IMG/VR virus record: IMGVR_UViG_2602041644_000008
Span: 1-37,809 of that record
Reading direction: 5' to 3' (one strand)
Source: a virus
Taxonomy: Duplodnaviria; Heunggongvirae; Uroviricota; Caudoviricetes
Length of the DNA stretch: 37,809 nucleotides
Part shown: positions 3,302-20,962 of the stretch, piece after piece
How the letters are laid out: each line of letters opens with the position of its first letter
Position numbering within the stretch: the stretch's first letter is position 1
The notes under the pieces: model-generated
Databases searched by the model: none
What the model saw: the letters and a program-made list of their open reading frames with translations, nothing else
Told to the model about the DNA's origin: nothing
Made by a program: the position numbers and the translations under genes

Positions 3302-3586
3302 TCAAATATAGAAATAAACACCAAAACAAACAGTAACAGGAACAACAAAGTCAAACAGGCTTCCAACATCCCATACGCGCGGATCAAAACCGCCCCACCA
3401 CGGCATGTTCATACGCTTGCCATGCCCGAACATTTCAATCCAGCGATATTCTGCCTGGGTGTGTTCACGCGCAATGAAGAACGTACAACCAGCTATCGCT
3501 CCATAAGCCCAGTTTCCGGTAAAAAGGCCAATCAGTACCTGCGAAGCCACAGCACAAAACGCATGAAGGAAAGGTGTTATATCCAT
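3302..3586 (-). CDS. Small polytopic membrane protein (94 aa), unknown function
   Basis: Start reassigned to MDITPF, which follows AAGGAG-N6-ATG; the upstream 21 codons of the tracked ORF lack an RBS. Several TM helices. Sits between tailspike and lysis genes, where epsilon15-like phages carry O-antigen-modification or exclusion genes. Confidence 0.5.
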   Translation of the reverse strand: MDITPFLHAFCAVASQVLIGLFTGNWAYGAIAGCTFFIAREHTQAEYRWIEMFGHGKRMNMPWWGGFDPRVWDVGSLFDFVVPVTVCFGVYFYI

Positions 3587-3620
3587 TATCGCTCCTTTAA
3601 CATAAGGATAAATAAACACT

Positions 3621-5936
3621 TCATAAAATAGATTTCGTCTTTGTAACAATAATATCTACAAAATCACCTGCAGATATAGCTGATGGTACTGTATCTGCAA
3701 GAGTAATCTTTTCTGAAGAGATGTTTTGCACATCTAATAATTTATTTTCAACCCCATCCGTATATACCAATTTGACATCACTGAATGGAGGGTAATAAGT
3801 GACTGTTCCTTGGTATACATATATTTCAATGCCTGAAATTGATTTCACTACATACCTGCCCCTTACAAGATTAATTTTGAGTTCAGATAAATCGGTTTTA
3901 TAACAGGTAATTCCTGAACCAATGTTAGCCATACTAATATCAGTATCACTATAATAAGTAATTGCTTTTCCTTGTTTTAAGGTGAAGTTATCTTTGCTTT
4001 TCCTTGGCAAGGATGTGCTATTTTTGTAATATCTACCAGTTAAGCATAGCCATGAAAATGCAGTATTCGCTACATTACCACCAGAATACACAGCTAAACG
4101 AATTGCACTAACTGGAACCCCTTCATTATTAATCCTGATCTTAATGGAAGAAATGTTAGCAACAGTAGCATATCTATGGTTAGATGAATCCCATTGCATA
4201 GAAGAAGTTATTGCTTCTGTTTGTGAAGTTATGACATTCCCATCTCCATCTAATGCATACAGGTAAATGCGAAACGATGCCGTATCTGCTGAGAATGTAA
4301 ACATATCACCATTTCTTACTGGTACATCTCCAGATTCCCATAACAACCCAAAATTCCGCATAAAAGCAAACTTAGAAGAAACTAGGTGACGGATATTATA
4401 TAAACCATCTACATCTGTTTGATATGCTAATACACCAACTTCTCCATTGTTGGCACTGGATATAAATGGGGTGTTAGCATTTAAAGAAAACAATGTTACT
4501 TCATCGGATATATTTTCCTGAACATGAAATACTGCATTCCCCTTGCCATTATCAGTTACCTCTACATAAGTGTAAGGTGATGGATTGTATGGTTCATTTG
4601 TATAGTAAGGAGAACTTAACCATGAAGCCTCAATTGAGTTATTCCACGTATATTCACCAAAGTTAATTATCAACTGTTGGTTAGTTGGGGATGATGGATA
4701 TCGTTCAAAACGAAACCCGTAGAAGTAATTGTTATCACCTCTTTGAATATCAATTTTACCTGCCCCCTCCATAGTTCCACCATAAAACTTATTGTGGTTA
4801 TGATGATATGGATTATCAGCGAAAATTATATTATTCGTACGATTCAGATAAAAATAGTTTTCATTTATCCATCCGTTCTCAACTCCAAGAAAATGAATTG
4901 TATCGACCTTTTTCAGGTTAAAGGTTGAGTATGCTATTGAATAATCCGTCGATGCCACCGAAGCATTATAATTTGCATATAACTGTAAGTAGTCGCAACG
5001 CTCAATGTTTATATGCTGCCCTTTTGCCCCGATAATACGAATATCCGGTGTCGTTTCAGATGAAATACCAGAATTTCTGATAATCGTTCCGAAGTTTTGT
5101 CTTGGGTTGTTAGGGTTTGATGCATTCCCGCCAAGCAATACCCCTATTCCTGAGTGGGATATGGTAAAAACAGCATTGGTCATTTCGAGGCTGACATTAC
5201 GAAGATTTAATGTCTCCGTAATAATAAAATTACCTTCCGCTCGTAATGTTCTGGATGATTCTCGTGCATATTCTGCAGCCAGGATCAATGCAGATGTATC
5301 ATCTGTTATACCATCGCCTTTTGCCCCAAAATCGCAAACACTAACGGTGTCTCTCATCTTATCCTGGAACGTTCGGTATACTGCTCCAGAACCATACTGA
5401 ATAAACCAACCAAAACCACCAACAACCCCGGCGATTGCAGCATCGACATAATTACGCATTGAGCGATTATTTACAGCGTCCTGCTCAAGTGATGGATCTG
5501 CAAGGTTAGAAATTTTGTTTTGCTTTGCATCGTAATATTTTGCAAGCAAAGATGGTTTCATCAATGCACGTCTGAACCACCCAAAACATTGCTGGATCAG
5601 CATCGTCAGGTAGTCAAAAGCATCTTCATGCACTTCGGGGAAAAATTTTCCCTGATTGCGAAGATCTGTCTCCTGCACTACATCAAGCACACGATCTATC
5701 GTAATTCGCCAGCCAGCAGCAAGCGGAGACGGCAGAACCACTGAACCGCCACTATAAGTGCCCGCCCCAGTTACCGTATAACCGGTATCCAGAACCAATT
5801 CTGTTACGTTCCCGTTCAGGTCAGACACCTGAACAACCAGGTCTGATTTTCTGAAAATTCGAAAAGTATACGGAAACGATGTCGTAACGCCGTTACCTGT
5901 GTATTCGTTGTGGTCAACTTCGGTTGAGACCGTCAT
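3621..5936 (-). CDS. Tailspike/tail fibre: T7 gp17-like N-terminal adaptor domain plus right-handed beta-helix (pectate-lyase-3-like) depolymerase domain
   Basis: N-terminus EYTGNGVTTSFPYTF..DLVV..DY..LPSPL..DLRN matches the gp17 N-terminal pattern. Internal CDFGAKGDGITDDTSAL is a beta-helix motif. C-terminal two-thirds is AT-rich (receptor-binding module). Confidence 0.8.
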   Translation of the reverse strand: MTVSTEVDHNEYTGNGVTTSFPYTFRIFRKSDLVVQVSDLNGNVTELVLDTGYTVTGAGTYSGGSVVLPSPLAAGWRITIDRVLDVVQETDLRNQGKFFPEVHEDAFDYLTMLIQQCFGWFRRALMKPSLLAKYYDAKQNKISNLADPSLEQDAVNNRSMRNYVDAAIAGVVGGFGWFIQYGSGAVYRTFQDKMRDTVSVCDFGAKGDGITDDTSALILAAEYARESSRTLRAEGNFIITETLNLRNVSLEMTNAVFTISHSGIGVLLGGNASNPNNPRQNFGTIIRNSGISSETTPDIRIIGAKGQHINIERCDYLQLYANYNASVASTDYSIAYSTFNLKKVDTIHFLGVENGWINENYFYLNRTNNIIFADNPYHHNHNKFYGGTMEGAGKIDIQRGDNNYFYGFRFERYPSSPTNQQLIINFGEYTWNNSIEASWLSSPYYTNEPYNPSPYTYVEVTDNGKGNAVFHVQENISDEVTLFSLNANTPFISSANNGEVGVLAYQTDVDGLYNIRHLVSSKFAFMRNFGLLWESGDVPVRNGDMFTFSADTASFRIYLYALDGDGNVITSQTEAITSSMQWDSSNHRYATVANISSIKIRINNEGVPVSAIRLAVYSGGNVANTAFSWLCLTGRYYKNSTSLPRKSKDNFTLKQGKAITYYSDTDISMANIGSGITCYKTDLSELKINLVRGRYVVKSISGIEIYVYQGTVTYYPPFSDVKLVYTDGVENKLLDVQNISSEKITLADTVPSAISAGDFVDIIVTKTKSIL

Positions 5937-6039
5937 GTTAAATCTCCAGATAGTCGCAGCACCCGTTGCGCCGCATATCTGGTTATTCTATTACCCAAAA
6001 AACCATATATGGATAGAAAGACTGTGAATATGAATAGAT

Positions 6040-6056
6040 ATTACCTTTCAGGTAAT
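6040..6056. promoter_or_regulatory. Operator dyad ATTACCTTTCAGGTAAT
   Basis: Perfect 6-N5-6 inverted repeat. Lies between the divergent tailspike gene and the 6133 ORF. Confidence 0.6.
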
Positions 6057-6092
6057 TTGCAAAACGTGCTGGATAGCAAACAAATTATTTGC

Positions 6093-6112
6093 TACTGTAT
6101 AAATATACAGTT
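6093..6112. promoter_or_regulatory. LexA (SOS) box TACTGTATAAATATACAGTT
   Basis: Perfect CTGT-N8-ACAG with an AT-rich centre, 20 bp upstream of the 6133 start. Confidence 0.6.
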
Positions 6113-6132
6113 ATTGCATGGAGAAGATTAAG

Positions 6133-6390
6133 ATGCAGCAGTATCACTATCCACTGGAAGACGGATTTACCGAAAGGATTCACACGCCGGGAGGCGTCAG
6201 GTCACTGGTGGAGGGATCGCACTTGATGAAATTACTCCGGGATCTCGATAAGGATGGATTTAATGTCGATGGCCCACTTGCCGAACTGACTGCACTGATT
6301 AACTACGTCACCAGCTCACAGATGTCTATGCAGGATCTGCAAACACATCTCGACTATTGTGCCGAACAATTACGAAAACAAACCACATAA
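6133..6390 (+). CDS. Small protein (85 aa) paralogous to the C-terminal domain of the adjacent Bro-N protein; candidate SOS-induced antirepressor
   Basis: RBS GGAGAAG 7 nt upstream. Residues TPGGVRSLVEGSHLMKLLRDLDKDGFNVDGPLAELTALINYV..DLQTHLDY align with Bro residues SPSGVLGLTENSLLMNLLNQLQEDGHDVSGAAAELTTMFCYI..DIQTHAEY. LexA box upstream. Confidence 0.5.
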   Translation: MQQYHYPLEDGFTERIHTPGGVRSLVEGSHLMKLLRDLDKDGFNVDGPLAELTALINYVTSSQMSMQDLQTHLDYCAEQLRKQTT

Positions 6391-6412
6391 AGAAAAGGCC
6401 GCTAGAGCGGCC
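6391..6412 (-). terminator. Rho-independent terminator (mainly minus strand) after the 6412..7140 gene
   Basis: GGCCGC-TCTA-GCGGCC followed by TTTTCTTT on the minus strand. Confidence 0.5.
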
Positions 6413-7140
6413 TATCGTTTCGCTTTGTGCTCGTCCCAGCACGTTTTGCACCATGCCATTAAGCCATCCGCATTTTGATTATTAGGGTAAAAGCTGGTTC
6501 GTTTTCTGCGGACATTACAAATTGGGCACCACTTCATATGGCGTGTATTCTTTGGACCATCGAGACACCTTGCACACCACTTAGTCAATCCATCTGGATT
6601 TTTTGACGATTTCCTGAATTTTTCATATGGAAGGTTTATTCTGCATCGCAAGCACTGCTTGCTACCACTTGAAACTCTGTTAGCTGATTCTTCTTTTGGC
6701 GGCGATACAGAAGGTATTCTTGCTGGCTCTGATACTGCCTGAGGTGCTTTTTTAGATGACTGAGACGATATGTCATCACCAGGGAATCGTCCATGATATG
6801 CCGGACGCGTTGACACTCCAGGTGGAAGCTCTGCTGTAAATGGCTTTGGCTGAATCAGTTGCCTCTCTTTTGCTAACTCCTGCTGTTTATAATATGTCTG
6901 GATTACCGCACTATCATAAGCAGGAGGTGCGGAAATATTAGGCGCATTACCTCCAGTTTTTTGAAACTGAGTAGAGGTGTGTTCTATCACCTGTGTACGA
7001 TTAATCGTTATCTCCCCATCTTCGGTCTTTATCGTTTTGTTATGATTAACGACCGTACGATCAGAGATCTTAGTCTTGTTCTGGTTGATAACATAAATAA
7101 TCACCGCAACCACACCAACAACTATCCAGAAAACTTCCAT
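6412..7140 (-). CDS. Membrane-anchored protein with Pro/Ser-rich linker and C-terminal tandem CxxC zinc-ribbon repeats (unknown function)
   Basis: Strong RBS GAGGAAAAG. N-terminal TM FWIVVGVVAVIIYVI. C-terminus has two repeats: CLRCRINLPYEKFRKSSKNPDGLTKWCARC and CPICNVRRKRTSFYPNNQNADGLMAWCKTC. Low GC. Confidence 0.6.
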   Translation of the reverse strand: MEVFWIVVGVVAVIIYVINQNKTKISDRTVVNHNKTIKTEDGEITINRTQVIEHTSTQFQKTGGNAPNISAPPAYDSAVIQTYYKQQELAKERQLIQPKPFTAELPPGVSTRPAYHGRFPGDDISSQSSKKAPQAVSEPARIPSVSPPKEESANRVSSGSKQCLRCRINLPYEKFRKSSKNPDGLTKWCARCLDGPKNTRHMKWCPICNVRRKRTSFYPNNQNADGLMAWCKTCWDEHKAKR

Positions 7141-7159
7141 TGCTTTTCCTCACAATAAC

Positions 7160-7176
7160 ATTACCTTAAAGGTAAT
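7160..7176. promoter_or_regulatory. Operator dyad ATTACCTTAAAGGTAAT
   Basis: Perfect dyad 20 bp upstream of the 6412..7140 start, in a divergent regulatory region. Confidence 0.6.
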
Positions 7177-7252
7177 ATCTTGCTTTCAGGTGATCAAGCG
7201 TTAAACGCAATCAACCAAATAAGGTTGATTTTAATATTTCTTCGCGTTTATC

Positions 7253-7269
7253 ATTACCTTTTAGGTAAA
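7253..7269. promoter_or_regulatory. Operator dyad ATTACCTTTTAGGTAAA
   Basis: Second copy in the divergent region, 93 bp from the first. Adjacent inverted repeat TCAACC-N6-GGTTGA (7211-7228). Confidence 0.55.
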
Positions 7270-7535
7270 TTTACATCGCACTCCTCTTGTGCCATAGTAA
7301 TTGGGCACTGGCAAAATCCAGTGCCGGGATTGGTCTCCCGGATTACTACAGAGGCACATATGCCGCATAAGCGGTTTTTTTATGTGTAAAGCGCACCTAT
7401 TCTATGGTGAGCTGTGTGGGGGCACCGAAAGGTGCGCCGGGTTCCTTTGTAGCCGGTAAGACCAACTCTGCACAGTTCACCACCATCTGATTGGTCTCAG
7501 CGGTGGTGATTAACCTAACTACAAAGGTGATCGCC

Positions 7536-8228
7536 ATGAATACCAAACCTTCCATCTTTTCCTTTGAGTCATCCTGCCAGATCCGTATGTTCATGATTGA
7601 CGGAGAACCTTGGTTTGTCACCAAAGATGTGTGCAATGCTTTGAATATTGATGTTACACAAGCGAGAAAACTTGATAAAAAAGGCTGGAACAAAAAGGGG
7701 CTGTATTCAATACAGACCCCTGGTGGAATACAAGAACTATCCATCGTTTCAGAATCAGGTCTCTACATCCTTATTCTGCGTTGCAAAGAGGCAATGACAG
7801 AGGGAACGAGAGCGTTCAGATTTCTTGAATGGGTTACAGGTGAGGTTCTTCCTCAGATCCGCCGCACCGGAAGTTACATTAAAAACTCGCTCCCGCAGGA
7901 AGAACGCATAAAGATGGTTGCCGACCAGGTAGCCAACGCCACAGCATCAGCAATGATGCAGGCAATGAAGATAGAGAACAAAACCTACAGTGCCCCACTG
8001 AAGCCCGGCTACCGTAGCCTGATTCATTCTCCGTCTGGTGTTCTCGGCCTGACGGAGAACTCACTGCTGATGAATCTGCTGAACCAGTTACAGGAAGACG
8101 GGCACGATGTATCGGGCGCGGCGGCGGAGCTGACCACCATGTTCTGCTACATCGTCGGTGTGAGCAAATGCCTGCGTGATATCCAGACCCACGCGGAGTA
8201 CATCAACGACAAAGCAGGATTCTTCTGA
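7536..8228 (+). CDS. Bro-N domain protein (antirepressor-like, BRO family)
   Basis: Start moved to MNTKPS, which follows AAGGTG-N7-ATG. Bro-N signature FSFE...IRMFMIDGEPWFVTKDVCNALNI. C-terminal domain is paralogous to the 6133 ORF. Confidence 0.7.
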   Translation: MNTKPSIFSFESSCQIRMFMIDGEPWFVTKDVCNALNIDVTQARKLDKKGWNKKGLYSIQTPGGIQELSIVSESGLYILILRCKEAMTEGTRAFRFLEWVTGEVLPQIRRTGSYIKNSLPQEERIKMVADQVANATASAMMQAMKIENKTYSAPLKPGYRSLIHSPSGVLGLTENSLLMNLLNQLQEDGHDVSGAAAELTTMFCYIVGVSKCLRDIQTHAEYINDKAGFF

Positions 8229-8299
8229 CGGGCGGCGGCACAGGGATGTGCCTTTAAATAATTCTGTACAGATTGCAGACCGGGGGTGAATAGCGTACT

Positions 8300-8316
8300 A
8301 TTACCTTAAAGGTAAA
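8300..8316. promoter_or_regulatory. Operator dyad ATTACCTTAAAGGTAAA
   Basis: Immediately upstream of the promoter/RBS of the 8358 ORF. Confidence 0.55.
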
Positions 8317-8357
8317 CCTGTTTTTATTTTATACCTGTAACTTACCGGAGATTAAAG

Positions 8358-8684
8358 ATGACAAAACTTGGATTCGTGATGAGAGGTCCGGTAAGAAGCG
8401 GAACTCATGCAAAGCGTAGCAAGAGTCGTATTTTTACTGGTAAGGTTGTAGCACGTAAATCAGCTATTGGCTCGTTCAATAGTGAAAATGCGGCATTGCG
8501 CCATATTTTTATCAGCACAAAGCCAAGAGCATCCGCTGATGTGCATACAATGTCTATTCCTATCACAAAGAATATCAAGCGGATAAAAAAGCTCTCATCT
8601 GCAGAATCAAAAGAGATATCTTTCCGCCAGCTTAACTCATTAGAAACGCATATGAAGGAAGAGGAATTCGATGTTTTTGAGTGA
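8358..8684 (+). CDS. Basic 108-aa protein, first gene of a two-gene operon (putative antitoxin partner)
   Basis: RBS GGAGATTAAAG-ATG. Overlaps the downstream gene by 14 nt. No recognisable domain. Confidence 0.35.
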   Translation: MTKLGFVMRGPVRSGTHAKRSKSRIFTGKVVARKSAIGSFNSENAALRHIFISTKPRASADVHTMSIPITKNIKRIKKLSSAESKEISFRQLNSLETHMKEEEFDVFE

Positions 8685-9183
8685 GTATAGCGGGAAGGTT
8701 ATACCTACTGGTGAGTTTAAAACTGATGACTTTCTGATTTCGCTAAAAGATGCTTTTAAACAACACTGGCGTCATGGTCATCATCCTGATCTGGGAAAAG
8801 ATACTCTTTTTGAAAGACCAGACGAAGTATTAGGCTTCCATCTCAGAAAGGTTCATGTCAATATTGGTGAATATGCATCATATTCATACTCATGTACTGA
8901 ACAGTGTTGGGATGAGTGGTCATATGGATTGATTGATGAACAAGGAAATTACAGGCCAAAACCAACCAGTAACGCATATCTCATATATGCAGTCAATGAA
9001 ATAAGAGATGCAGCCTTACTAGCTTATTGGGACCCGCCCGCACACACCAAAGCTAACGCAAAAGTTTGGATGGATTCCGTATTGAATTTCACAAAATTAT
9101 TTCATGAACGAACTAATACAGCTCCACTTAGTAGAAATGTTTATCCGTGGGATTATTCGTACAAATCCAAAAAGCCTGCATAG
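8671..9183 (+). CDS. YafO-like toxin family protein (candidate type II TA toxin)
   Basis: RBS GGAAGAGGA. Segments HPDLGKDTLFERPDE, FHLRKVHVNIGE, NAYLIYAV and ALLAYWDPPAH parallel E. coli YafO motifs (LPDIFGRDALYDD, FERVAHIHLANE, AHLVYC, LLIAILKPEPH). Comparison is from memory only. Confidence 0.4.
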   Translation: MFLSEYSGKVIPTGEFKTDDFLISLKDAFKQHWRHGHHPDLGKDTLFERPDEVLGFHLRKVHVNIGEYASYSYSCTEQCWDEWSYGLIDEQGNYRPKPTSNAYLIYAVNEIRDAALLAYWDPPAHTKANAKVWMDSVLNFTKLFHERTNTAPLSRNVYPWDYSYKSKKPA

Positions 9184-9264
9184 TAGTTTTTTATGGACGA
9201 AACAAAAGTCAGTGCTACACTCATTGACGCCACATTGAGGTGGCTTATAGATGGAAATTTCACA

Positions 9265-9426
9265 ATGAAAAAAGCATTTGCTGCACTGTTCGTTTTGTTG
9301 TCTCTGGTAGCTTCAACTCAGGCCTTTGCCGGTCGTTGTCAGCACGACAGCGATACTGCCGCTGACGGCTCCCGCTGCGGTGGGCGTTCTGCGGATTCCC
9401 GCCCGGGCGGCGGTGGCATTCGTTAA
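9265..9426 (+). CDS. Small secreted peptide (signal peptide MKKAFAALFVLLSLVASTQAFA plus 31-aa Gly/Ser/Asp-rich part with 2 Cys)
   Basis: Internal ATG of tracked ORF 9193..9426. A 5-codon uORF (MEISQ, 9251..9268) with SD GAGGTGG overlaps this start as ATGA. Start site uncertain. Confidence 0.3.
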   Translation: MKKAFAALFVLLSLVASTQAFAGRCQHDSDTAADGSRCGGRSADSRPGGGGIR

Positions 9427-9455
9427 AAACAAGGCCGCGAAAGCGGCCTGTTTGA
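9425..9455. terminator. Bidirectional terminator between convergent genes
   Basis: AAAAACAA-GGCCGC-GAAA-GCGGCC-TGTTTG. Confidence 0.6.
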
Positions 9456-10307
9456 TCACTGTGCAGTTTTCGCTGATCGATTTTCAGCTCTAAATTCAAG
9501 AACCGTTTCAATATTTCTTTCCTTCAGCATATCAATAACATTTTTATTCACTTGACTATCACTGGTTAATAACTGGTAAACGTTGCTTCTCTCTTTATCA
9601 GAGTTTTCTTTAACAGCTGCTTTGCATGCCAAATGCTTATTGAAATTTTCTACATCGCTAGTACAGGAATTTACGGCTGCTGATGAAATATCAGACGCTG
9701 AAGAAACACCATCATCCAAACGTTTTATAGCATTTTCTATACATGAGTTAAGGGAATAAACGACAACTGAGCGATACCCTTCAGACGCACACCATTCTAA
9801 ATTTCTTGAAGGATCGAGTGGTTTTACTTCGCTGGATTGAATTAACTTGTCAAAAACTGACTTATATTCAATCTGTTTTTTATCTATAGCCCATACTTCA
9901 GTAGCTGATTTATAATTCCCCGTATGCCTATTAACATCAAATCCATGTTTTATAAGCAAATCTGCCCATGAAAGATTTATTGATTCATTGTTATGAGGCC
10001 ATTTTCCTGTCAGAACCGCCCCCATAGACCCCATATATCCGCCATATGATGGTATAGCACCATGGCTCAGTAACTTCTCAGCAACCACAGGGCAATTAAT
10101 TACATAAGAGGCGTAAAGCCCATTCCATAAAGCCCCTCTATAGTAATCGCCACGATTAGGTTCTTTTAAGTCGATAGCCTTTGATAATTGTTCACACGTT
10201 TTGCATGCATCAAAGTTATCCTTATTGCATTGCAATGAACTGGCAGCTGTAGGATTTACAGAGACTATTGAAAGCACTATGCCAAAAAACAAATTTATTT
10301 TTTTCAT
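9456..10307 (-). CDS. Secreted Cys-rich protein (283 aa) with ankyrin-like repeat signatures; last gene of the virion operon
   Basis: Signal peptide MKKINLFFGIVLSIVSVNPTAASS. 10 Cys. LLSHGAIP and LLIKHGFDVNRH resemble ankyrin repeat ends. Start is 1 nt after the stop of the gp16-like gene. Low GC. Confidence 0.5.
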   Translation of the reverse strand: MKKINLFFGIVLSIVSVNPTAASSLQCNKDNFDACKTCEQLSKAIDLKEPNRGDYYRGALWNGLYASYVINCPVVAEKLLSHGAIPSYGGYMGSMGAVLTGKWPHNNESINLSWADLLIKHGFDVNRHTGNYKSATEVWAIDKKQIEYKSVFDKLIQSSEVKPLDPSRNLEWCASEGYRSVVVYSLNSCIENAIKRLDDGVSSASDISSAAVNSCTSDVENFNKHLACKAAVKENSDKERSNVYQLLTSDSQVNKNVIDMLKERNIETVLEFRAENRSAKTAQ

Positions 10308-10308
10308 C

Positions 10309-13300
10309 CTATTTCATCTGCTCTTCAACTTTATTTAGTAATGGTGATATCGCCCACAGATTCTGAAAAGGTAGCATTTTACGGACAGCGTGGGTTTGCT
10401 GGCTGTCAAATTCTCCGTTAAGTACACCATTCGCAACCGTCGCGGCATCACCGCCAAGATCAAAGGTAGGACCAAGTAAAGCACCAATAGTATTACGACT
10501 CTGAAACCTTGATACCGGAGGCGCACCAAACATCGCGCCAAGACCAAACCTACCGCCGCTTATGTTCTCAACGGTATTCAGCGGCTCAGAGAGCCAGCCA
10601 AGCATTCCGCCCCGGTCGATCCCCTCTTTCACAAGGTTATTCCAGCTGTAGTCGATATCGCGACCGCTTAACTTCTGTTTCATCATATAGACCATTGAGC
10701 CAAGCGCAATCGTGCCAAGCGCACCAAGATAGAATGCAGCATCGCCCTGCTGGATACCAGATACTAGCACCCTGTTATGCTGTGCGAAGATAAACGTTTT
10801 GAACTGCGTGATCATCTTCCAGCCTTCTTTACTAAAAAACAGCGGTGTATCACCTACGCCAGGCGTTACAATCACTGAGTCTACATCTTTCAGCACTGCA
10901 GACTGGAAAATCTCTCTAGCGAAACGGTCATCCCACAGATGACTATGCCCGGTTAACAGCCCGTCCATATCCTCTCCGTGCTTCCCGAATTGCTCCCCGA
11001 TTCGGCGCAGAACATCTTCATTGATGCCGACCTGTGCCATCTTCCGCATTTCACTTTTGGAGAGCGTGCCACCAGCAGAAACTTGGCGAGCCGCGTCAAG
11101 TATCCTCGACTGCACTATCATCCCGGACCATGATTTAAGTGCGCTGTTCCACTGATTCATCAGCGTCCAGTTACCGAATTTCTGCGTCATCCAGTTCAGG
11201 CCTCGCTCAGCGGCGCTTCTCCGGCTATAGGGGTCAGTAAGATCCGCTATAGCCTTTGTACGCGTAGACAGGACATAATCAAGCCCAACGGCCATTTCTC
11301 GCAAATCCCTGGTTGCAATCTTCACTGAGTCCATATTTTTAAGCATGCTTACCATTGGTCCGAGAGATTTTCTCAGGCCATGCTGCATCATCGGTCGCAT
11401 CAGATCAGTTGCAGCGGAGACGGTCATTCCACCAAGCAAACGGAGGAAGTTAATATTCCTAGCAACTCGCCCGGCACGAACAAAGAAACTGCGTGGATCT
11501 TGAGGTGCGCCGTAAGTACCAAGCAGTCGGTCACGCATAGCCGTAATATCCCTAATATCAGCCTCCCGTTGCTTCTCAAGAGCTGCACGTCGTTTAGGTG
11601 TTTTAGCCTCTTTTATTAGCCGGGTATATTCCTCACTAACCTGACGGATTTGCTCCCCCATATCTTTACGGCCAAACTGCGCAGTCAGCTCAATTTCTGG
11701 CGCCACCTGCCGGAGATAACTTTCCATGATGTAGTTAACATCTGATTCAAGAAAATCTTCTATACGCTCATCAGGAATAAGCAGCGTTCGGCTTTTAGTG
11801 AAACCAGCCCGACCAACGAGTCTCTCTGGGATAATATCGGCTGGTACAAGCCCGGAAGGTGCGCCTATTATTTTATTCACGATCTCGTCAGCAGCGTCCT
11901 CTGCTTCCTCTCGGGATAGAGGCTCCATCTGCTTCAGTGCTCGCTCGCGGCTTGCATTCAGCCTTGTGGTTGAATTTGCCCGTTTTTGCAGTCGGCGAAG
12001 CTCAGAACGATATTTCCGTGGATTATCCAGCAACTCCATATGGCGCTGATAGACAGGAAGCTCACTCTTTGCCTGCGCTATATCATCAAGGCGAGTTTTA
12101 AGGTCAGAGCTTTCTTTCATCATTCTTGCCTGAAGTTTTTCTGATGAAGTCTCGGCCAACTCTTTTTCTATTCTTGTAAGACGCGCCTGTGTGTCAGTCT
12201 CCTGAGATATAAGCCTATTTCGTTTATCCAGTTCTTCCATGAGTAGAATTTTTTTACCAGACCATTTCTCCGCTTCAGCGATTTCACTAGCGAGAGCATC
12301 AGCGCGCAGTGCTGATTCCTCTGCAGTTTTTAGCAATGAATTTATCTTTTCAATTCGCTGACCTGCTTTGTCAGCACCTTTGGCACTAATCCCTTGTATC
12401 CAGTTGGCAATTCGCCCTCTGAATTCCGTGCGGTCGGAAAGTATCTTATCGAACTTATAAATGCGGGGAAGATAACTTTTCGCCGTCACGACATCGATAT
12501 CCTCAGGAAGGATCCCCAATTCCTGCATACGGGCTTTTGTGGTCTCAAAAATGGGGCGGATTCTGGCGGCTGCTTGTGAAACCTCAGGAATATCACTCTG
12601 ATCACCACGGCGCATAGCCATGCCAACAGCTTCATTGAAATCAATAAAGTTCATCCTCTTCACGCCGCGGGCGCTGACAGATTTGCTGTACTGCTGGTAA
12701 GCATCACGAGTAGCTTCCATCTGCTTATAAAGCATGGCGTCGTATTGCTTAATCTTAGTCTCGACTGCCGTAAACGTAGCCAACCCCTCATCATTTTTGG
12801 CGAAGAAATAGTTATTTTCGGCAAGCTGCTGGTTAATCTGACGGGAAACAAGAGATGGTGATTGCGCCAAGCGGCCAGCAGGAGTGACACTCAACGTTTT
12901 GTTAGCAAGTCCAAGTCCAGCGAGCTGTTCCTGATCGAGTGTGGTATTGAAAACCTGAGCTGCACCAATGCTTTGAGGAGAATCCATACCTCGCAAATGA
13001 TTACCTACTGAGTTAACCACTGCCTCGCGCGCGCTAGGTCCAGCAAGTAGCTGTGCACCAGCACCAAGGATCCCACCAACGAGAGCATCAACAACAACGT
13101 TCGATACGCTCTCCATCGGTGAGCGAGCTTCCTGAGTGGCCTGCAATGCGGCCTCTGAAGCAACACTGCCAGCAGCATTGGCTAAAGCAAAACGTCCGGC
13201 TGTTTCTGCAATACGACCGCCACGAACGACAGCGCCGAACGGAATAAACATAGAAATCGCATTGAATGGATCTGCTAATCTCATTGCTACAGAAGAGACT

Positions 13301-13698
13301 GTACCAGCAAATCCCAAGCCTGAATTGTATTCCATGTCAGCTCTCTGCTGATCGATTCGATGTTTAATTGCCATTGTTTCTTCAGGCGAACCGGAGTTGA
13401 TAAACGAATCTGCAAAATCTTCATAGCCTTTAATATCTGCTGCATCGTTATCAAATGGGTTATATCCTTCAACCCTGTCAAACTGACTGAAAGGAGCACT
13501 GGCAATAAAGCTACCCAGCGTGTTATCTATACGAAATGCTGCTTGTCTAGACCTTTGAACGCGTTGATCACTGGTAAATGGGTTCACAGCAGAAAGCAAA
13601 GAAGGTGTTTCCATATAGAAATTACTGTCATCAGGTGCTGCTATTTGCTGAATATCCTCGCCAAGCAACTCTTTAGGATCCTGTTCATATATCGGCAT
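10309..13698 (-). CDS. Internal virion/ejection protein, T7 gp16-like by position and size (1129 aa)
   Basis: Large protein following the gp14- and gp15-like genes in T7 order. Coiled-coil-rich middle. No motif verified. Confidence 0.55.
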   Translation of the reverse strand: MPIYEQDPKELLGEDIQQIAAPDDSNFYMETPSLLSAVNPFTSDQRVQRSRQAAFRIDNTLGSFIASAPFSQFDRVEGYNPFDNDAADIKGYEDFADSFINSGSPEETMAIKHRIDQQRADMEYNSGLGFAGTVSSVAMRLADPFNAISMFIPFGAVVRGGRIAETAGRFALANAAGSVASEAALQATQEARSPMESVSNVVVDALVGGILGAGAQLLAGPSAREAVVNSVGNHLRGMDSPQSIGAAQVFNTTLDQEQLAGLGLANKTLSVTPAGRLAQSPSLVSRQINQQLAENNYFFAKNDEGLATFTAVETKIKQYDAMLYKQMEATRDAYQQYSKSVSARGVKRMNFIDFNEAVGMAMRRGDQSDIPEVSQAAARIRPIFETTKARMQELGILPEDIDVVTAKSYLPRIYKFDKILSDRTEFRGRIANWIQGISAKGADKAGQRIEKINSLLKTAEESALRADALASEIAEAEKWSGKKILLMEELDKRNRLISQETDTQARLTRIEKELAETSSEKLQARMMKESSDLKTRLDDIAQAKSELPVYQRHMELLDNPRKYRSELRRLQKRANSTTRLNASRERALKQMEPLSREEAEDAADEIVNKIIGAPSGLVPADIIPERLVGRAGFTKSRTLLIPDERIEDFLESDVNYIMESYLRQVAPEIELTAQFGRKDMGEQIRQVSEEYTRLIKEAKTPKRRAALEKQREADIRDITAMRDRLLGTYGAPQDPRSFFVRAGRVARNINFLRLLGGMTVSAATDLMRPMMQHGLRKSLGPMVSMLKNMDSVKIATRDLREMAVGLDYVLSTRTKAIADLTDPYSRRSAAERGLNWMTQKFGNWTLMNQWNSALKSWSGMIVQSRILDAARQVSAGGTLSKSEMRKMAQVGINEDVLRRIGEQFGKHGEDMDGLLTGHSHLWDDRFAREIFQSAVLKDVDSVIVTPGVGDTPLFFSKEGWKMITQFKTFIFAQHNRVLVSGIQQGDAAFYLGALGTIALGSMVYMMKQKLSGRDIDYSWNNLVKEGIDRGGMLGWLSEPLNTVENISGGRFGLGAMFGAPPVSRFQSRNTIGALLGPTFDLGGDAATVANGVLNGEFDSQQTHAVRKMLPFQNLWAISPLLNKVEEQMK

Positions 13699-16445
13699 TA
13701 TTTGCCCCCTGCGTATATATTGCTCGGAAGGTAATTGGCTGAACCATAACCGAATGGTTTGGTCAGATCTGGAGGAGTATATCCATCTTTATTGCTGAAC
13801 TGCGGCAGCGGATTGCCTTCTCTCCGCACTCTAGCCTCATCAACACGCTGTTGCTGGAACTGAATGGTTTGCCTGTACATTGGAGATGTCAGCTGATCCG
13901 GCTTGAAACGAACAGGGAGACCATTTTCTCCAATATAATTTCTCGGTTCTATCGCTCCGTTTGCGTCAGGCTGTAAAACCATAACAGCATAACTCCTATC
14001 CCTTGCCGTAAGGCCATCAGAAACAAGTATTAAGTCCGTATCACTGCGAGGACCGCCAAAGGATTTTGATTTAAGCTCGCGTTTTTCCTGCTCCCACTGC
14101 CCCTGTATCCAGTTACCAGCACCATTATTTACTCCGTACAATGCCTCAGGTGCATACTTCATAACCTCTGCTTTGCCATTAACCGTAGAAACTCCCCAGG
14201 TGGTTCTGATCATGGCATTGGTCATTTTCTCAGCCTGTTCTGCATCGCCACCTGTCTGTACAAAGTTAGCATCGTAAATTGTCTGGTAATCTCGCTGATA
14301 GGCCGCATTTGATTTTCCTGGATCGGTAATATCCGGAGACCACGAACCAAAGGAAGTCAGACTGCTGGCGTTATTTTGTGCAGCAGTTGCCCTCGCCGCG
14401 ACATATTTTTTGTCTCGCATGGCAGTGGAAAGCATCTGTTTCATTCGGTCATCCTGTTGGAACACCTGGCTGTAAGCCATATCAACAGCCTTATCCTCCG
14501 GCACTCCAGCGCGGGAATAATCGTAAACCTTGCCGTAAAATGCCATCGTACTTTTATCAAGTGTTGCCGCTGCCGCCGGATTATTATCGAATAACTGACC
14601 GTAGAATTTTGCCATCGGGACAACCAGCGCAGGATCTCTTGATGTTGCTCCACTGTTAAGCATTGTTTTAACCTGAGTTGGTATCATGCCGCTTTTAGTT
14701 GTGACGGTGACCAGTGTATTGATGCTCTGCGGATCAGATATGGAAAACGAAGGCGCGATATCCTGCGCGAAATAACGGTCTACCGCTGCCTGATTGTTTT
14801 TGTCGTTCGGGTCCAGCGGGAAGTTATTTTGCATTGAAGACACGAACCTGTTTCTTCCCTGCTGAATCTCCCACTCCCTATCCATCTCTTTAAATTTGGC
14901 CTGCATTTTCTCCCAGCGTTGCTGGTTAGCTGCAAATCCAGGAGCGTTTGGATCCTGTGGACGTAAACGTTCAAGAATGTCTTGTCGTCCTTCTGGAGTG
15001 AGGTCTTTAGCGGCACCAATGACACCTCCATATTGTATCTGCGCCTGCATATCCTTCCACTTCATAGCGCCAATGCGCGGACCATTGGCCCGGATAAAAT
15101 CGTCCTCAGAAGGTAACTTCTCAGGTTTCAATCCTTCATCAAGGGCTGAATATGCATCTTTAACTACGGTGCTAAGCTGGTCCGCATACTGCTGGCGGTA
15201 CTGATTTCTCAGCTCATTAGCCTGCCTCAATGCCTGTATTTGCATTTGAGGGCTCATAGCATCAAATGCCGCATTGCCCGTATAACGCTTAGGTGAATCA
15301 AGGTTAGTTAGACCAAGGGCTGCCGAGATACCAGTTTCAAGCTGTTCGGTGCTATAAGGCATACTGCCATTTTCGTGTTTAATAATCCCAGCACATAAAG
15401 CAGCTAGTGTCTTTGGGTTAGAGATATCAAGCTGATCATTCTCCCCAACACCAAGCTCACCACACAATGCCCTAATATAAGCATCAGTATTATTACCATC
15501 ACTAGCCGGAGCATAGCGATTAACAATCTCGCTAACGGTGTCATAGCCTTGACGCTGGTAAGACAACATATTTTTACCCAACGCGCGGATTCCATGCTCA
15601 GGGGTAGCAAACGTTGCAAAACGTCCATCGCTACCGATCTGACCTTCCCACGGGTTAGATTTGCTCGCTTCAATATTACCAGGGTTATTATTACGTAAAC
15701 CACGAGCATCCAATGAATTACCATGTGATATTGCACGACTCACACCATCAAGATCCCCTGGCTCTCCATTAACCTGAAGAAACTCGTTGTATTTTTGAGC
15801 GATATTTCCTATCCATGCTTGCTGCCCCATTTGTTCCTTGAGCTGAGTTTTCTGCTGAACACGCCACTCATCAGGAAGCCCATGCGCATCAGCGTATTGA
15901 TCAATAGATTCAAATCGCTGCTTGGCTAAATCGACAAATGCTTGGTTATCGCTATATAGCCCCGCAGACTGAGTGACAGCCAATGCATTTCCTGACAAAT
16001 ACGTTTGATCTTGGAATTGCTGAAACTGCCCAACTTCATATCGACGTGCCTGATTGTAATAAGACTGCATAGACTGCTGGAGTTGAAAGGATAATTTATT
16101 CCTTTCCTCACTTTCAGGAATTGAGCCTAATAATGCCTGAGCCCTTTCCTGCATATTTTTCATAACAGCGTCACTCTGACCAAGAGCGTTTTTACCCTGT
16201 TTAGAAATCAGCCCACTTTCAGGGTTGTTAATCTGGTCATCTGCAAATTGGTTAAATTGCAGTAACGCCTCCTGGGCCATAGCAACATTCGCTTTCTGCC
16301 TGGCTTCACCATATGCCACCGCATACTGATCTGCGACATTCGCCAGCACCTGACCTGCTTGAGGAACATCGAAGATCTGAAAACCACCGGTTTGCACACC
16401 ACGACTTTGCACCTGGCGTCCGGATGTAGTAGGAACAACAGGCAT
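13698..16445 (-). CDS. Internal virion protein, T7 gp15-like by position (915 aa), with embedded conserved NNPGN-motif domain
   Basis: Residues about 245-365 are GLRNNNPGNIEASK..FATFATPEHGIRALGKNMLSYQRQGYDTVSEIVNRYAPASDGNNTDAYIRALC, a compact conserved-looking block. Confidence 0.55.
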   Translation of the reverse strand: MPVVPTTSGRQVQSRGVQTGGFQIFDVPQAGQVLANVADQYAVAYGEARQKANVAMAQEALLQFNQFADDQINNPESGLISKQGKNALGQSDAVMKNMQERAQALLGSIPESEERNKLSFQLQQSMQSYYNQARRYEVGQFQQFQDQTYLSGNALAVTQSAGLYSDNQAFVDLAKQRFESIDQYADAHGLPDEWRVQQKTQLKEQMGQQAWIGNIAQKYNEFLQVNGEPGDLDGVSRAISHGNSLDARGLRNNNPGNIEASKSNPWEGQIGSDGRFATFATPEHGIRALGKNMLSYQRQGYDTVSEIVNRYAPASDGNNTDAYIRALCGELGVGENDQLDISNPKTLAALCAGIIKHENGSMPYSTEQLETGISAALGLTNLDSPKRYTGNAAFDAMSPQMQIQALRQANELRNQYRQQYADQLSTVVKDAYSALDEGLKPEKLPSEDDFIRANGPRIGAMKWKDMQAQIQYGGVIGAAKDLTPEGRQDILERLRPQDPNAPGFAANQQRWEKMQAKFKEMDREWEIQQGRNRFVSSMQNNFPLDPNDKNNQAAVDRYFAQDIAPSFSISDPQSINTLVTVTTKSGMIPTQVKTMLNSGATSRDPALVVPMAKFYGQLFDNNPAAAATLDKSTMAFYGKVYDYSRAGVPEDKAVDMAYSQVFQQDDRMKQMLSTAMRDKKYVAARATAAQNNASSLTSFGSWSPDITDPGKSNAAYQRDYQTIYDANFVQTGGDAEQAEKMTNAMIRTTWGVSTVNGKAEVMKYAPEALYGVNNGAGNWIQGQWEQEKRELKSKSFGGPRSDTDLILVSDGLTARDRSYAVMVLQPDANGAIEPRNYIGENGLPVRFKPDQLTSPMYRQTIQFQQQRVDEARVRREGNPLPQFSNKDGYTPPDLTKPFGYGSANYLPSNIYAGGK

Positions 16446-17020
16446 CAGTAACCTCCTATTTTGAATCGGGAGTCAGAATTCATAAAACCTGAGTTAGATA
16501 ACATTGGCGTCCCACCACTAGATGTACTTCCTTTAGAGAACGGACTCCACGTCCCACCAAACATCTGGTACGCACCGTATGCCTTCAGAGGCGCAGTGAG
16601 TAAAGTTGTTGCTGCTCCCACATTCCCCTGTTTACGGGCTGAACTGGCTTCTGCTTTATAGTTGGCAGCCTGAACCTGATAACCGTAAGCCTCGCGTTGC
16701 GCGTTATTCACCGTCGTCAGAGAATCAAGAGCGCCAAACTGGGCAGTGTCGCCAAATATATCCAGCGCGTTACCTGTAGATAAATCAGCGCCGGTAGCCC
16801 CCATTGTCGCCGCCTGTGTACCAAGCCGCTGTCGGGTCTCTCTGCGCCGTTGCTCAGCTTCAGCGTTACCTCTGTTTATTGCATCATTTGCCTGAGCTGT
16901 GGCTATATCTGCGTTCGCTTCTGCAACCTTCGAGGCATACTTTCCCTGTTGGTACTGGGTGTATGCCTGAATGCCACTCATGGCGAGCATTGCGCCACCA
17001 GCAATAACCGGATCGCACAT
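16445..17020 (-). CDS. Internal virion protein B (T7 gp14-like)
   Basis: N-terminus MCDPVIAGGAMLAMSGIQAYTQYQ resembles T7 gp14 MCWAAAIPIAISGAQAISGQ. Length 191 aa versus 196 for gp14. Confidence 0.55.
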   Translation of the reverse strand: MCDPVIAGGAMLAMSGIQAYTQYQQGKYASKVAEANADIATAQANDAINRGNAEAEQRRRETRQRLGTQAATMGATGADLSTGNALDIFGDTAQFGALDSLTTVNNAQREAYGYQVQAANYKAEASSARKQGNVGAATTLLTAPLKAYGAYQMFGGTWSPFSKGSTSSGGTPMLSNSGFMNSDSRFKIGGY

Positions 17021-17484
17021 TATTTTCTCTCCATGTGAAATCTGTGGAAATTAAGACCAAGAGCACCATAAGGCGCGGCTTCTTCAAGCCTGAATCCAAG
17101 CCAGTGCAGCCATGCTTTGGCAACATGGTTTCGCTCGTCGACATAGTTTTCCAGGCGCGGATAAACTGCCAGCATCTGCTGCAATACAGGGCGGCAGTGG
17201 CGAAGAAATGTCTTCTGATATTTTTCGATACGGCTGGTTCCGACCAGCCAGGGCGTACCATTGCCACCGATCATTGACGCCGGAGATACGCCAAACATGG
17301 TTACCAGTTCTCCGTTCGCAAATCCTGACCAGGCCATAGTCGCAGTACGCAGACCAACACGCAGCGCATCTTCGGTAGTCATCAGTGATACCGCATACAG
17401 TTCGTCAATATCAGCCTGACGAACATCCGGCAAAATCATCTGAAGATGCTCTTCGGTTGCGGGAATAATTTGAACACCGATCAT
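17020..17484 (-). CDS. Virion-module protein (gp13 position), unknown function
   Basis: Position only, between the gp12-like and gp14-like genes. Confidence 0.35.
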   Translation of the reverse strand: MIGVQIIPATEEHLQMILPDVRQADIDELYAVSLMTTEDALRVGLRTATMAWSGFANGELVTMFGVSPASMIGGNGTPWLVGTSRIEKYQKTFLRHCRPVLQQMLAVYPRLENYVDERNHVAKAWLHWLGFRLEEAAPYGALGLNFHRFHMERK

Positions 17485-19955: not shown

Positions 19956-20560
19956 CAGGACAACCTCGCAATGGTAAACTCGTCAACCGGTGGCTGTGGT
20001 TCCTGTGATTCATTCTGGCTATGCGAGCCAGCACTCAGAATCACGCGATTGTACATATTGAGGGCAAACGTACCGAGGTCTGCCTTCCCAGTCAGCGCCA
20101 TGTTAATAGCTGCCGCAAGACGCCAGGCCAACGCCTCCATAAAAATGGCATCAAACATGTTCACATCTGAAACGCGAGAGACATACTTGAGCCATGCCTG
20201 CGGCTGGTCTGTGTAGATCAACTTTCCTGTTCCGTTGGTGTCTGCACCAACTTCGTACTGAACGCGCATTGCTGCTGTTGGATTGCGTACACCAGGAAGC
20301 ATAATTTCAGTAATGCGCAGACAATCGGACGGGTACTGGTACGCATATTCCCAGTCAGGCGGTGGATTGCTCGTATCTGCAAGCGCCACGCGTTTGGTAG
20401 CAAAGTTCCAGTCAAAATCAGAAAGCACAGCATCACGGCAGGCCTCAAAGTGCAGCGAACATTCCCCCGCTTCCTTGCTGGCTTCCGTCAGGCTGTTAAT
20501 ACTGCGGCTGTTGCCAATATTGGACAGCGCACGATTGCAGATCTCTACTACAGAGGCCAT
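19955..20560 (-). CDS. Tail tubular protein A / adaptor (T7 gp11-like)
   Basis: 201 aa versus 196 for gp11. ICNRALSNIGNSRSINSLTE..RDAVLSDFDWNFA parallels gp11 VNDILASIGEPPVSTLEG..RQIQSRGWTFN. Confidence 0.55.
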   Translation of the reverse strand: MASVVEICNRALSNIGNSRSINSLTEASKEAGECSLHFEACRDAVLSDFDWNFATKRVALADTSNPPPDWEYAYQYPSDCLRITEIMLPGVRNPTAAMRVQYEVGADTNGTGKLIYTDQPQAWLKYVSRVSDVNMFDAIFMEALAWRLAAAINMALTGKADLGTFALNMYNRVILSAGSHSQNESQEPQPPVDEFTIARLS

Positions 20561-20582
20561 AAGTTTCTATACTCCTGCAATA

Positions 20583-20600
20583 AAGGGGCCGAAGCCCCTT
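20583..20600 (-). terminator. Intra-operon hairpin/attenuator AAGGGGC-TTCG-GCCCCTT followed by TTATT
   Basis: 7-bp GC stem with tetraloop between two late genes. Confidence 0.4.
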
Positions 20601-20616
20601 GTCTGATTCGCGAGGC

Positions 20617-20961
20617 TTACACGCCCAGTTCTTTACGCTTATCTGCGATCTTCTTGCGTAGCGTTTCGGCTTTGGCGTTATGGTGTGGCTTCTCGTTAAA
20701 GAGCAATTCGTACTCTTCACGGAGCTTATCCAGTTCACCATCATCTGACACATCGTTGATGATTTTGGTGCTGGTTGCTGCCATTGACACCTTTCCTGCA
20801 ACTTTTGCTTTTGCCTGTCTGGCTGCATCGTTAACAGGTTCCAGTGCGCTACCAGGCTCACCTTCGTATTCGATTTCTGCCCCCTCCGGCCACAGAGTGT
20901 TATGGATATGAGAGAGGCGCAGAACGCGGTATCTTGGTTTCTCACCTGACATCGATATCAC
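20617..20961 (-). CDS. Hypothetical head-module protein (114 aa)
   Basis: ORF in the late operon. No domain recognised. Confidence 0.4.
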   Translation of the reverse strand: MISMSGEKPRYRVLRLSHIHNTLWPEGAEIEYEGEPGSALEPVNDAARQAKAKVAGKVSMAATSTKIINDVSDDGELDKLREEYELLFNEKPHHNAKAETLRKKIADKRKELGV

Positions 20962-20962
20962 C

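Follow-up and report, generated by a model that had tools for sequence, protein, structure and literature searches.

The DNA considered here is the stretch from position 5937 to position 10307 of a viral sequence of 37,809 nucleotides (nt), the latter being referred to as the window, which belongs to an epsilon15/phiV10-like (Uetakevirus-type) temperate podophage, an Escherichia coli prophage. The stretch encodes two predicted antirepressors, namely the small protein Ant and a larger protein with a Bro-N domain, two small RNAs of the IsrK and C4 types located between them, a mini-protein with a signal peptide, and a set of four genes, here termed cargo, for a membrane zinc-ribbon (Zn-ribbon) protein, a YafO-like putative toxin with its partner, and a secreted Cys-rich protein. 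These elements are discussed with respect to Rep, the repressor encoded elsewhere in the window, whose predicted operators recur in the stretch. An earlier note on this DNA had taken the whole of it, about 4.3 kb, for an AT-rich moron island interrupting the virion genes.

When positions 5000–11000 were compared with phage records by megablast, the matches were Escherichia phage EC.W1-9 (98.4%), TL-2011b, phiV10, and vB_EcoP_ZX5, with the Salmonella epsilon15-type phages as weaker matches. PHROG scans of the minus strand gave, in order, the genes for the terminase, portal, protease, major capsid, tail tube A and B, and four internal or ejection proteins, which confirms the T7-like order proposed for the virion module. 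The last ejection gene (10309–13698), coding for a protein of 1129 amino acids (aa), is followed by the stretch, and this by the tailspike gene (3621–5936).

Ant, Rep, and their regulatory sites

The gene ant (6133–6390, plus strand) codes for an 85-aa protein, homologous to epsilon15 gp19 and phiV10p24, which matches phrog_450 and the chain named "Anti-repressor protein" in PDB entry 5D50 (chain E, E-value 1.3e-47), and which is 88% identical to the annotated ant product of Salmonella phage SPC32H. The gene is kept in every relative examined, and its product, previously described as a small protein with a LexA box, is by homology an SPC32H-type antirepressor. Its partner repressor, Rep (35641–36225, plus strand, 194 aa), is encoded outside the stretch and matches over its full length (residues 1–190) chain A of the same entry, "Repressor", with an E-value of 4e-42. 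In Pfam, Rep matches helix-turn-helix (HTH) domains only, with no S24 peptidase domain, i.e., the one responsible for self-cleavage. As for the way the two proteins interact, secondary sources describe that Rep binds DNA as a tetramer and that tetrameric Ant binds two Rep dimers, thereby breaking the tetramer, the tetramerisation domain of Rep being the same domain that contacts Ant.

Ahead of ant lies the near-consensus LexA (SOS) box recognized in the earlier note, TACTGTATAAATATACAGTT (6093–6112), which agrees with the consensus TACTGTATATATATACAGTA at 18 of 20 positions, ends 21 nt before the start codon, and is the only CTGT-N8-ACAG site of the window with an AT-rich spacer. A box is located 37–38 nt before ant in SPC32H, epsilon15, phiV10, Tyrion, and all the E. 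coli loci. Among 17 aligned relatives, 14 of them, including TL-2011b, have the box and an operator (see below) at a fixed spacing before ant, and the box is absent from this position in two Klebsiella loci and a Morganella prophage. Binding of LexA at 6093–6112 is predicted from this conserved box; in SPC32H, Kim and Ryu (J Virol, 2013) reportedly found that LexA represses ant.

The divergent intergenic region between ant and the tailspike gene also contains a perfect 17-bp palindrome, ATTACCTTTCAGGTAAT (6040–6056), whose location 55 bp upstream of the LexA box does not vary among the E. coli, Salmonella, and Enterobacter loci, and which coincides with a 17-nt "repressor" protein_bind feature of the epsilon15 record, where seven such sites are annotated genome-wide. 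The motif, ATTACC-N5-GGTAAT, is found at four places in the stretch (6040, 7160, 7253, and 8300), and the whole window has 16 palindrome sites with two mismatches or fewer, against 1.26 expected, a number reached in none of 100 shuffles. Since the site at 6040 matches the epsilon15 "repressor" features, the operator copies that had been noticed in the stretch are, by this correspondence, Rep operators, dispersed over the genome and already annotated in this phage family. Regarding promoters, inspection by eye could not place a consensus promoter for either ant or the Zn-ribbon gene.

Further Rep palindromes were seen outside the stretch at 25434, 28561, 28579, 33177, 33239, 35185, 35570, 36282, and 36344, all in intergenic or promoter regions, and pairs of them flank the early promoters beside the Rep gene. 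A tRNA-Arg gene (anticodon TCT; 25772–25848, plus strand) is flanked on one side by the terminase region and on the other by the promoter region ahead of the late operon, which carries the operator at 25434.

A more distant arrangement was observed in a Morganella morganii prophage (locus L020, 6001–7106), where a 1131-aa ejection protein, a 283-aa homologue of the secreted Cys-rich protein, an Ant homologue (36% identity), and the tailspike follow each other in this order. This locus has no ATTACC-N5-GGTAAT site and no SOS box before ant, its sole CTGT-N8-ACAG being inside the tailspike gene. Its switch probably depends on operators of another kind and responds to another trigger.

The IsrK and C4 RNAs and the second antirepressor

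Two tandem promoter-like sites are found around the third operator of the stretch (7225–7298, plus strand): TTGATT-18-TATCAT at 7225–7254 and TTTACA-17-(TG)CATAGT at 7270–7298, with the operator (7253–7269) overlapping the −10 element of the first and abutting the −35 element of the second. They precede an IsrK-type leader small RNA (7305–7381, plus strand), composed of the a1/b1 target hairpins and an intrinsic terminator, which scores 74.7 bits for Rfam RF01394 against a gathering score of 50 and folds with a z-score of −3.3; the c4-a1b1 model (RF03163) reaches 38.3 bits, below its gathering score of 46.7. The leader is followed by a C4 antisense RNA (7400–7487, plus strand; RF01695, 78.2 bits against a gathering score of 45). 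Both RNAs, overlooked in the earlier note, are above the gathering scores in all 12 related loci that have the second antirepressor, and in 12 out of 12 a Rep-type palindrome is placed exactly 52 nt before the 5' end of IsrK. Rfam detects neither of them in SPC32H, epsilon15, and BUCT711, the three relatives devoid of the second antirepressor.

The C4 target sites (7488–7527, plus strand) follow immediately, with a2, UGAUUGGUCUC, at 7488–7498 and b2, CUACAAAGG, at 7519–7527, the latter overlapping the ribosome binding site (RBS) of the Bro-N gene. Pairing was judged by the Rfam scores and by exact complementarity, the shuffle control for the duplexes being uninformative, as it ignores intramolecular structure. 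By these means, the C4 loop CCUUUGUAG (7444–7452) is complementary over 9 nt to CUACAAAGG, across the RBS of the ATG at 7536, and the C4 segment AGACCAA (7459–7465) matches over 7 nt UUGGUCU both in the leader (7330–7336) and in a2 (7491–7497). A frame of 28 codons (7404–7490), whose translation is only putative, is contained in C4 and stops 45 nt short of the ATG at 7536.

The gene so preceded (7536–8228, plus strand) encodes an N-terminal Bro-N domain, as the earlier note had stated (PF02498, 51 bits against a Pfam cut-off of 25.6), fused to a C-terminal domain of about 77 residues that is 42% identical to the small Ant and matches chain E of 5D50 (E-value 1e-13). This Ant-like domain spans residues 119–195, approximately, when counted from the ATG at 7536, which correspond to residues 164–240 of the 245-aa open reading frame (ORF) from 7491 that was used in the searches. 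The TTG at 7491 was rejected as the start of the gene, as it is an artefact of ORF definition, and the ATG at 7536 has an RBS and is the RefSeq start. Across the relatives, the C-terminal part is 85–93% identical, with the N-terminal domain being swapped among Bro-N, AntA/AntB, ORF6N, and others.

Experimental information is available for a homologue: overexpression of ORF4 of vB_EcoP_ZX5, which corresponds to the Bro-N protein, lowered prophage titre and lysogeny about 1000-fold, and ORF21 of the same phage, the Rep homologue, blocked lytic growth (PMC9782041). Moreover, in Gifsy-1, transcription from the isrK promoter partly passes the IsrK terminator and enters an antirepressor gene whose translation is under RNA control (PMC4825925). 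Judged by its domains and its leader, the Bro-N protein is a second antirepressor placed under an IsrK/C4 gate of the P1/P7 immI type, and the set composed of the two RNAs and this gene is termed hereafter the immI-like module.

Exchangeable cargo in three slots

In SPC32H and epsilon15, the region from the last ejection gene to the tailspike measures about 660 bp and contains a small membrane gene, one terminator, and ant. This terminator, a GC-rich hairpin of the form AGGCCGC-N4-GCGGCCT, occurs once in these minimal relatives, directly after ant, and for this reason the extra DNA of the window is placed between the ant stop codon and the ancestral terminator. The window has two copies, close to the positions given in the earlier note (6391 and 9425): the ancestral one (9432–9449) is bidirectional and common to the plus-strand genes and the late operon, and the second one (6396–6413) serves ant and the Zn-ribbon gene. 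In the phiV10-type loci, the hairpin and its neighbour GTGACATGTCAC follow the gene of the 53-aa mini-protein and there is no terminator after ant, an arrangement that could make a single SOS-started transcription unit of ant, IsrK/C4, the second antirepressor, and the cargo. The family terminator was also located at 5268–5285 of locus L008 and at about 7598–7615 of L002.

The comparison of 17 loci defines three slots whose content is exchangeable. Slot A, between ant and the immI-like module, holds the Zn-ribbon gene in the window and either a YafO-family gene pair or nothing in relatives; slot B, after the second antirepressor, holds a gene pair for a 108-aa protein and the YafO-like protein, in place of which relatives have DUF2335, DUF4760, or other hypothetical genes; slot C follows the last ejection gene and holds the gene of the 283-aa Cys-rich protein, replaced by genes of 46, 98, 186, or 204 aa or, in TL-2011b, by P22-type genes. 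In this last phage, slot C (locus L003, 8645–9829) includes Arc, Ant, and the sar RNA (44.8 bits against a gathering score of 43), which brings to three the antirepressor modules in one region, namely the LexA-controlled Ant, the C4-gated Bro-N antirepressor, and Arc/Ant/sar.

The Zn-ribbon gene of slot A (6412–7140, minus strand) encodes 242 aa with an N-terminal transmembrane (TM) helix, a Pro-rich linker, and two C-terminal CxxC...CxxC zinc ribbons, in agreement with the membrane zinc-ribbon protein announced in the earlier note. It matches phrog_6762 and, weakly, zinc ribbons of the Endonuclease VII/Lar type, and its family consists of 33 clusters, all from Enterobacterales, in which the eight Cys of the two CxxC...CxxC units are invariant and the linker is variable. 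A perfect palindromic Rep operator (7160–7176) is located 20 nt upstream of the start codon, and all the loci with the Zn-ribbon gene in slot A (L003, L004, L005, and L014) have this operator.

Slot B begins with a promoter-like site identified by eye, TTGCAG-17-TACTAT, overlapped by the Rep-type operator ATTACCTTAAAGGTAAA (8300–8316; the two together span 8274–8316, plus strand). Such an operator is found before the slot B cargo in 13 of the 14 loci that have one, whatever the cargo is. The first gene (8358–8684, plus strand) encodes a very basic protein of 108 aa (isoelectric point (pI) 10.6; phrog_5933), a putative antitoxin or regulator, and overlaps by 14 nt the second one (8671–9183, plus strand), which encodes a 170-aa YafO-related putative toxin. 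The latter has a confidently predicted alpha/beta fold of the RelE/HigB type and scores 19.7 bits for PF13957, below the cut-off of 25; 15 of its 36 relatives match this family and no other (best E-value 2.2e-6), and a slot B paralogue from TL-2011b, 33% identical, reaches 26.3 bits. The YafO-like toxin pair of the earlier note is then sustained by its fold and by the overlapping partner, which is kept in Serratia, with the assignment to YafO falling short of the Pfam cut-off; the toxin activity of the 170-aa protein and its neutralisation by the 108-aa partner are predictions.

The Serratia pair is located on a Serratia marcescens chromosome (L025, 3628–4513), where a toxin 76% identical to the YafO-like protein is encoded after an overlapping partner 38% identical to the 108-aa protein, a perfect ATTACCTTTTTGGTAAT stands 54 nt ahead of both genes, and the flanking DNA gives no alignment with the window. 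These data bear on the view that the pair is an autonomous, self-regulated toxin-antitoxin cassette, in which the palindrome at 8300 would be bound by the 108-aa protein, its likeness to the Rep operator being coincidental or secondarily exploited. The presence of the palindrome with the pair between flanks that do not align and the strongly basic character of the protein in the antitoxin position are in favour of this explanation, which nonetheless appears unlikely to us: unrelated slot B cargoes (DUF2335, DUF4760, other hypothetical) carry the same type of palindrome, and the Serratia islet, which is not an intact prophage and which also holds an Abi_alpha gene and an excisionase 46% identical to epsilon15 gp33, may be the remnant of a related prophage.

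The plus-strand set ends with the gene of the mini-protein (9265–9426), the secreted peptide of the earlier note, whose 53 aa include a signal peptide and a mature part of about 30 aa with two Cys. Its product matches phrog_3117 and phrog_14503, is nearly universal among the relatives, and reaches 100% identity across the 11 E. coli loci that carry the gene and 82% in Klebsiella. The comparison with the Klebsiella copies places 26 of the 37–38 substitutions at third codon positions, which argues that the gene is real and under purifying selection. A promoter-like TTGACG-16-TATAGA, with no Rep palindrome, was seen by eye before the gene (within 9184–9264, plus strand).

Slot C is occupied by the gene of the 283-aa protein (9456–10307, minus strand), an all-helical product, predicted as secreted or periplasmic, in which a signal peptide is combined with eight invariant Cys. 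The gene begins 1 nt past the stop codon for the 1129-aa ejection protein, at a sharp drop in GC content (the proportion of guanine plus cytosine, GC), and no promoter-like site was found before it; in line with the transcriptional fusion claimed earlier, the gene appears to be read with the late operon. The family comprises 22 clusters, with a 41%-identical homologue at the same position in Morganella prophages, and the structural comparison returned no informative neighbour. One role was considered for this protein and discarded, that of a virion accessory tied to the allele of the 1129-aa ejection protein, since the two co-occur in E. coli as well as in Morganella. Strict linkage was rejected on account of a Klebsiella phage that has an unrelated 204-aa gene in slot C although its ejection protein is 92% identical. 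Moreover, a Sec signal and eight Cys are incompatible with virion assembly in the cytoplasm.

The distribution of these genes was evaluated in 5426 complete E. coli genomes. The ant region (ant plus LexA box) is present in 529 of them, the Zn-ribbon gene in 129, the 283-aa gene in 106, the 108-aa/YafO-like pair in 69, and at least 80% of the whole stretch in 8, hence each cargo gene occurs in just 13–24% of the ant-carrying prophages; near-identical copies of the stretch occur in phage EC.W1-9 and eight E. coli genomes. Much of the stretch, the cargo genes included, is an indel with respect to SPC32H and epsilon15, as an island would be; ant is found in every relative examined. None of the cargo genes is a virion component, so the case that the earlier note named against its own proposal, in which all related phages would keep the same genes here as virion components, does not hold.

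Base composition, computed per gene as GC and as GC at third codon positions (GC3), gives a similar division. The stretch has a GC of 0.428, compared with 0.495 for the virion module (10309–25123), and outside 3621–10307 every 4371-bp segment is at 0.465 or above, which agrees with the lower GC reported for these 4.3 kb. The drop is uneven, as it is carried by four genes, namely the Zn-ribbon (0.433), 108-aa (0.407), YafO-like (0.386), and 283-aa (0.369) genes, with ant (0.477), the Bro-N gene (0.486), and the 53-aa gene (0.58) being backbone-like. Moreover, the tailspike gene (0.386) is as AT-rich as the cargo, and the 4371-bp segment of lowest GC begins at 3034, so the AT-rich zone extends from about 3.0 to 10.3 kb and is wider than the stretch.

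These results allow us to consider the proposal that the whole 4.3 kb is a moron island, that is, a block of foreign genes that bring promoters and terminators of their own and are active in the repressed prophage, where they would benefit the lysogen through defence, exclusion, or fitness. The presence/absence pattern and the atypical composition expected from it hold for the Zn-ribbon gene, the 108-aa/YafO-like pair, and the 283-aa gene, and terminators bracket the cargo; in addition, a RelE-fold toxin module is plausible defence material, a related Serratia cassette adjoins an Abi_alpha gene, and P22 has its exclusion gene sieA at the same map position. Against it, ant, the C4/IsrK-gated second antirepressor, and the 53-aa gene belong to the family backbone and have phage-like GC, the cargo promoters of slots A and B carry the operator of the master repressor, the 283-aa gene lacks a promoter-like site and abuts a late gene, and PADLOC-DB 2.0 gave no match at E ≤ 0.1 for the eight proteins scanned. 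We consider the single moron island improbable: the backbone is better seen as the induction control of the phage itself, the Rep operators argue against expression from the repressed prophage, and the defence functions expected by the earlier note find no counterpart among the known systems of that database.

The same operators suggest another use of the cargo, as accessory genes of the lytic phase that are fired by the loss of Rep and serve host shut-off, counter-defence, or exclusion of competitors; the RelE-fold toxin would then degrade host mRNA, and the periplasmic and membrane proteins would modify the envelope. Consistent with this, the cargo promoters have operators that overlap their −10 elements or come after them, the 283-aa gene is transcribed along with the late operon and its homologue stays beside the ejection gene down to 41% identity, and Serratia prophages again have the Zn-ribbon gene in this inter-region. 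Other facts fit less well. Family, defence, and fold comparisons gave no functional homology for the Zn-ribbon and 283-aa proteins, and an NCBIfam scan of all the proteins of the stretch gave nothing usable; toxins accompanied by an apparent antitoxin are commoner in addiction or defence modules than in host shut-off; and the occurrence of each gene in 13–24% of the relatives implies that none is needed for lytic growth. On balance, this lytic-phase role is possible, at odds short of even.

Beyond the stretch, an ORF directly downstream of the tailspike gene (3302–3649, minus strand) encodes a small membrane protein (94–115 aa) with no family match. It occupies the slot where epsilon15, phiV10, and SPC32H have the genes that modify the O-antigen, which is the classical position for lysogenic conversion in this family.

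Probable induction control and its known counterparts

Taken together, the data are best explained, with a probability of about three in four in our estimate, by an immunity and induction-control region of the epsilon15/phiV10 type on which exchangeable cargo has accreted, and not by one foreign island. The features listed in the earlier note, all its gene calls included, are thus largely borne out, and its interpretation about half. In this explanation, ant, the leader RNAs, the Ant-like domain, and the 53-aa gene are backbone rather than moron-like elements. In the lysogen, Rep, an HTH protein devoid of a self-cleavage domain, would occupy the 17-bp palindromes at promoters throughout the genome, including the four of the stretch, and LexA would occupy the SOS box ahead of ant. 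DNA damage would remove LexA and permit the synthesis of the 85-aa Ant, which would bind Rep and break its DNA-binding tetramer, as this was shown for the SPC32H protein that is 88% identical. The loss of Rep would then open the promoter of the immI-like module, from which IsrK, C4, and the Bro-N/Ant protein are expressed, along with the cargo promoters of slots A and B. As C4 would pair with the RBS of the Bro-N gene, the second antirepressor would stay untranslated unless transcription outruns C4, which would create a gated feed-forward. Lastly, since a Rep-type operator is located at or just after the −10 element, and likewise in 13 of 14 slot B relatives, we predict the cargo of slots A and B to be off in the lysogen and switched on upon induction or infection, unlike classical morons.

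Several points weigh against this explanation. The occupancy of the operators, the position of the promoters, and the direction of the Rep effect are all read from sequence only, and the IsrK promoter, whose operator has its centre near −44, could be activated rather than repressed. Upstream of the Bro-N gene, no coupled frame of the icd/orf45 kind, as in P1 and Gifsy-1, is established. In addition, the 53-aa gene may be expressed in the lysogen from its operator-free promoter-like site, and the palindrome of slot B, also preceding the Serratia cassette, could be the operator of the cassette itself.

The induction-control explanation can be extended further, to regard the inter-region as a hot spot where unrelated cassettes are plugged behind copies of the master-repressor operator and stay silent until Rep is inactivated, either by the SOS response, by the two antirepressors of the phage itself, or by the antirepressor of an incoming relative. 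Such cassettes would comprise the RelE-fold toxin pair, the membrane protein with two zinc ribbons, and the DUF2335 and DUF4760 proteins. They would then act in host shut-off during induction, or as an abortive trap that senses superinfection through the loss of Rep, and the 283-aa protein would be an exclusion factor directed against the ejection of relatives. This extension is rather doubtful.

As about one in ten complete E. coli genomes has a prophage of the epsilon15/phiV10-like ant type, the correct annotation of this region matters. A small gene labelled "hypothetical" in public records would be the SOS-controlled trigger of induction, and the Bro-N gene a second trigger gated by RNA, with the IsrK and C4 RNAs being unannotated in all the phage records inspected. 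The control parts are machinery already known, and the cargo represents three small protein families of enterobacteria, which are uncharacterised. The three slots thus offer a defined and recurrent place to seek new accessory functions, and the wiring of the operators predicts for the cargo a role at induction or infection, as opposed to one in the resting lysogen.

Among the systems known, the closest is the Rep-Ant switch of SPC32H (PDB 5D50 and 5D4Z; gp19 and gp38 in epsilon15). Besides the identity of Ant and the full-length homology of Rep, the two phages share the SOS box and the Rep operator at the same spacing before ant, the location of ant beside the tailspike gene on the opposite strand, and a Rep without self-cleavage domain, and by analogy Ant is expected to bind Rep and free the operators in the window phage too. 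They differ in that the SPC32H/epsilon15 region has only ant, one terminator, and a small membrane gene, whereas the window adds a second antirepressor module and three sets of cargo, about 3.7 kb in all. The antirepression switch of SPC32H was reportedly described by Kim and Ryu in 2013 and by Kim et al. in 2016.

The immI-like module resembles immI of P1/P7 (c4, icd, ant) and isrK-orf45-anrP of Gifsy-1, with which it shares a leader with the a1/b1 targets, the IsrK terminator, a downstream antirepressor, C4 loops that pair at the RBS of the downstream gene, and an operator of the master repressor at the upstream promoter. Unlike immI, the regulated protein is a Bro-N domain fused to an SPC32H-type Ant domain and not the Ant1/2 of P1, and, in contrast to both immI and Gifsy-1, the icd/orf45-like frame is not established and the module belongs to a podophage whose primary switch is LexA/Ant. 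With respect to the toxins of the YafO/RelE group (yafN-yafO of E. coli, HigB, YafQ), the 170-aa protein has the RelE/HigB-like fold, a weak but specific relationship with the YafO profile, and a small overlapping partner upstream; it differs by a score below the Pfam cut-off, about 40 additional residues, a basic partner unrelated to YafN, and a phage-repressor-type operator at the promoter.

Finally, the order of P22, with gene 16, sieA, mnt/arc/sar/ant, and gene 9, occupies the same map position, from the last ejection gene to the tailspike, and also combines an antirepressor under both RNA and protein control with an exclusion gene; TL-2011b even has Arc, Ant, and the sar RNA in its slot C. 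The window has no homologues of Mnt, Arc, sar, and SieA, and accordingly its likeness to P22 is one of position and logic, and not of gene descent.

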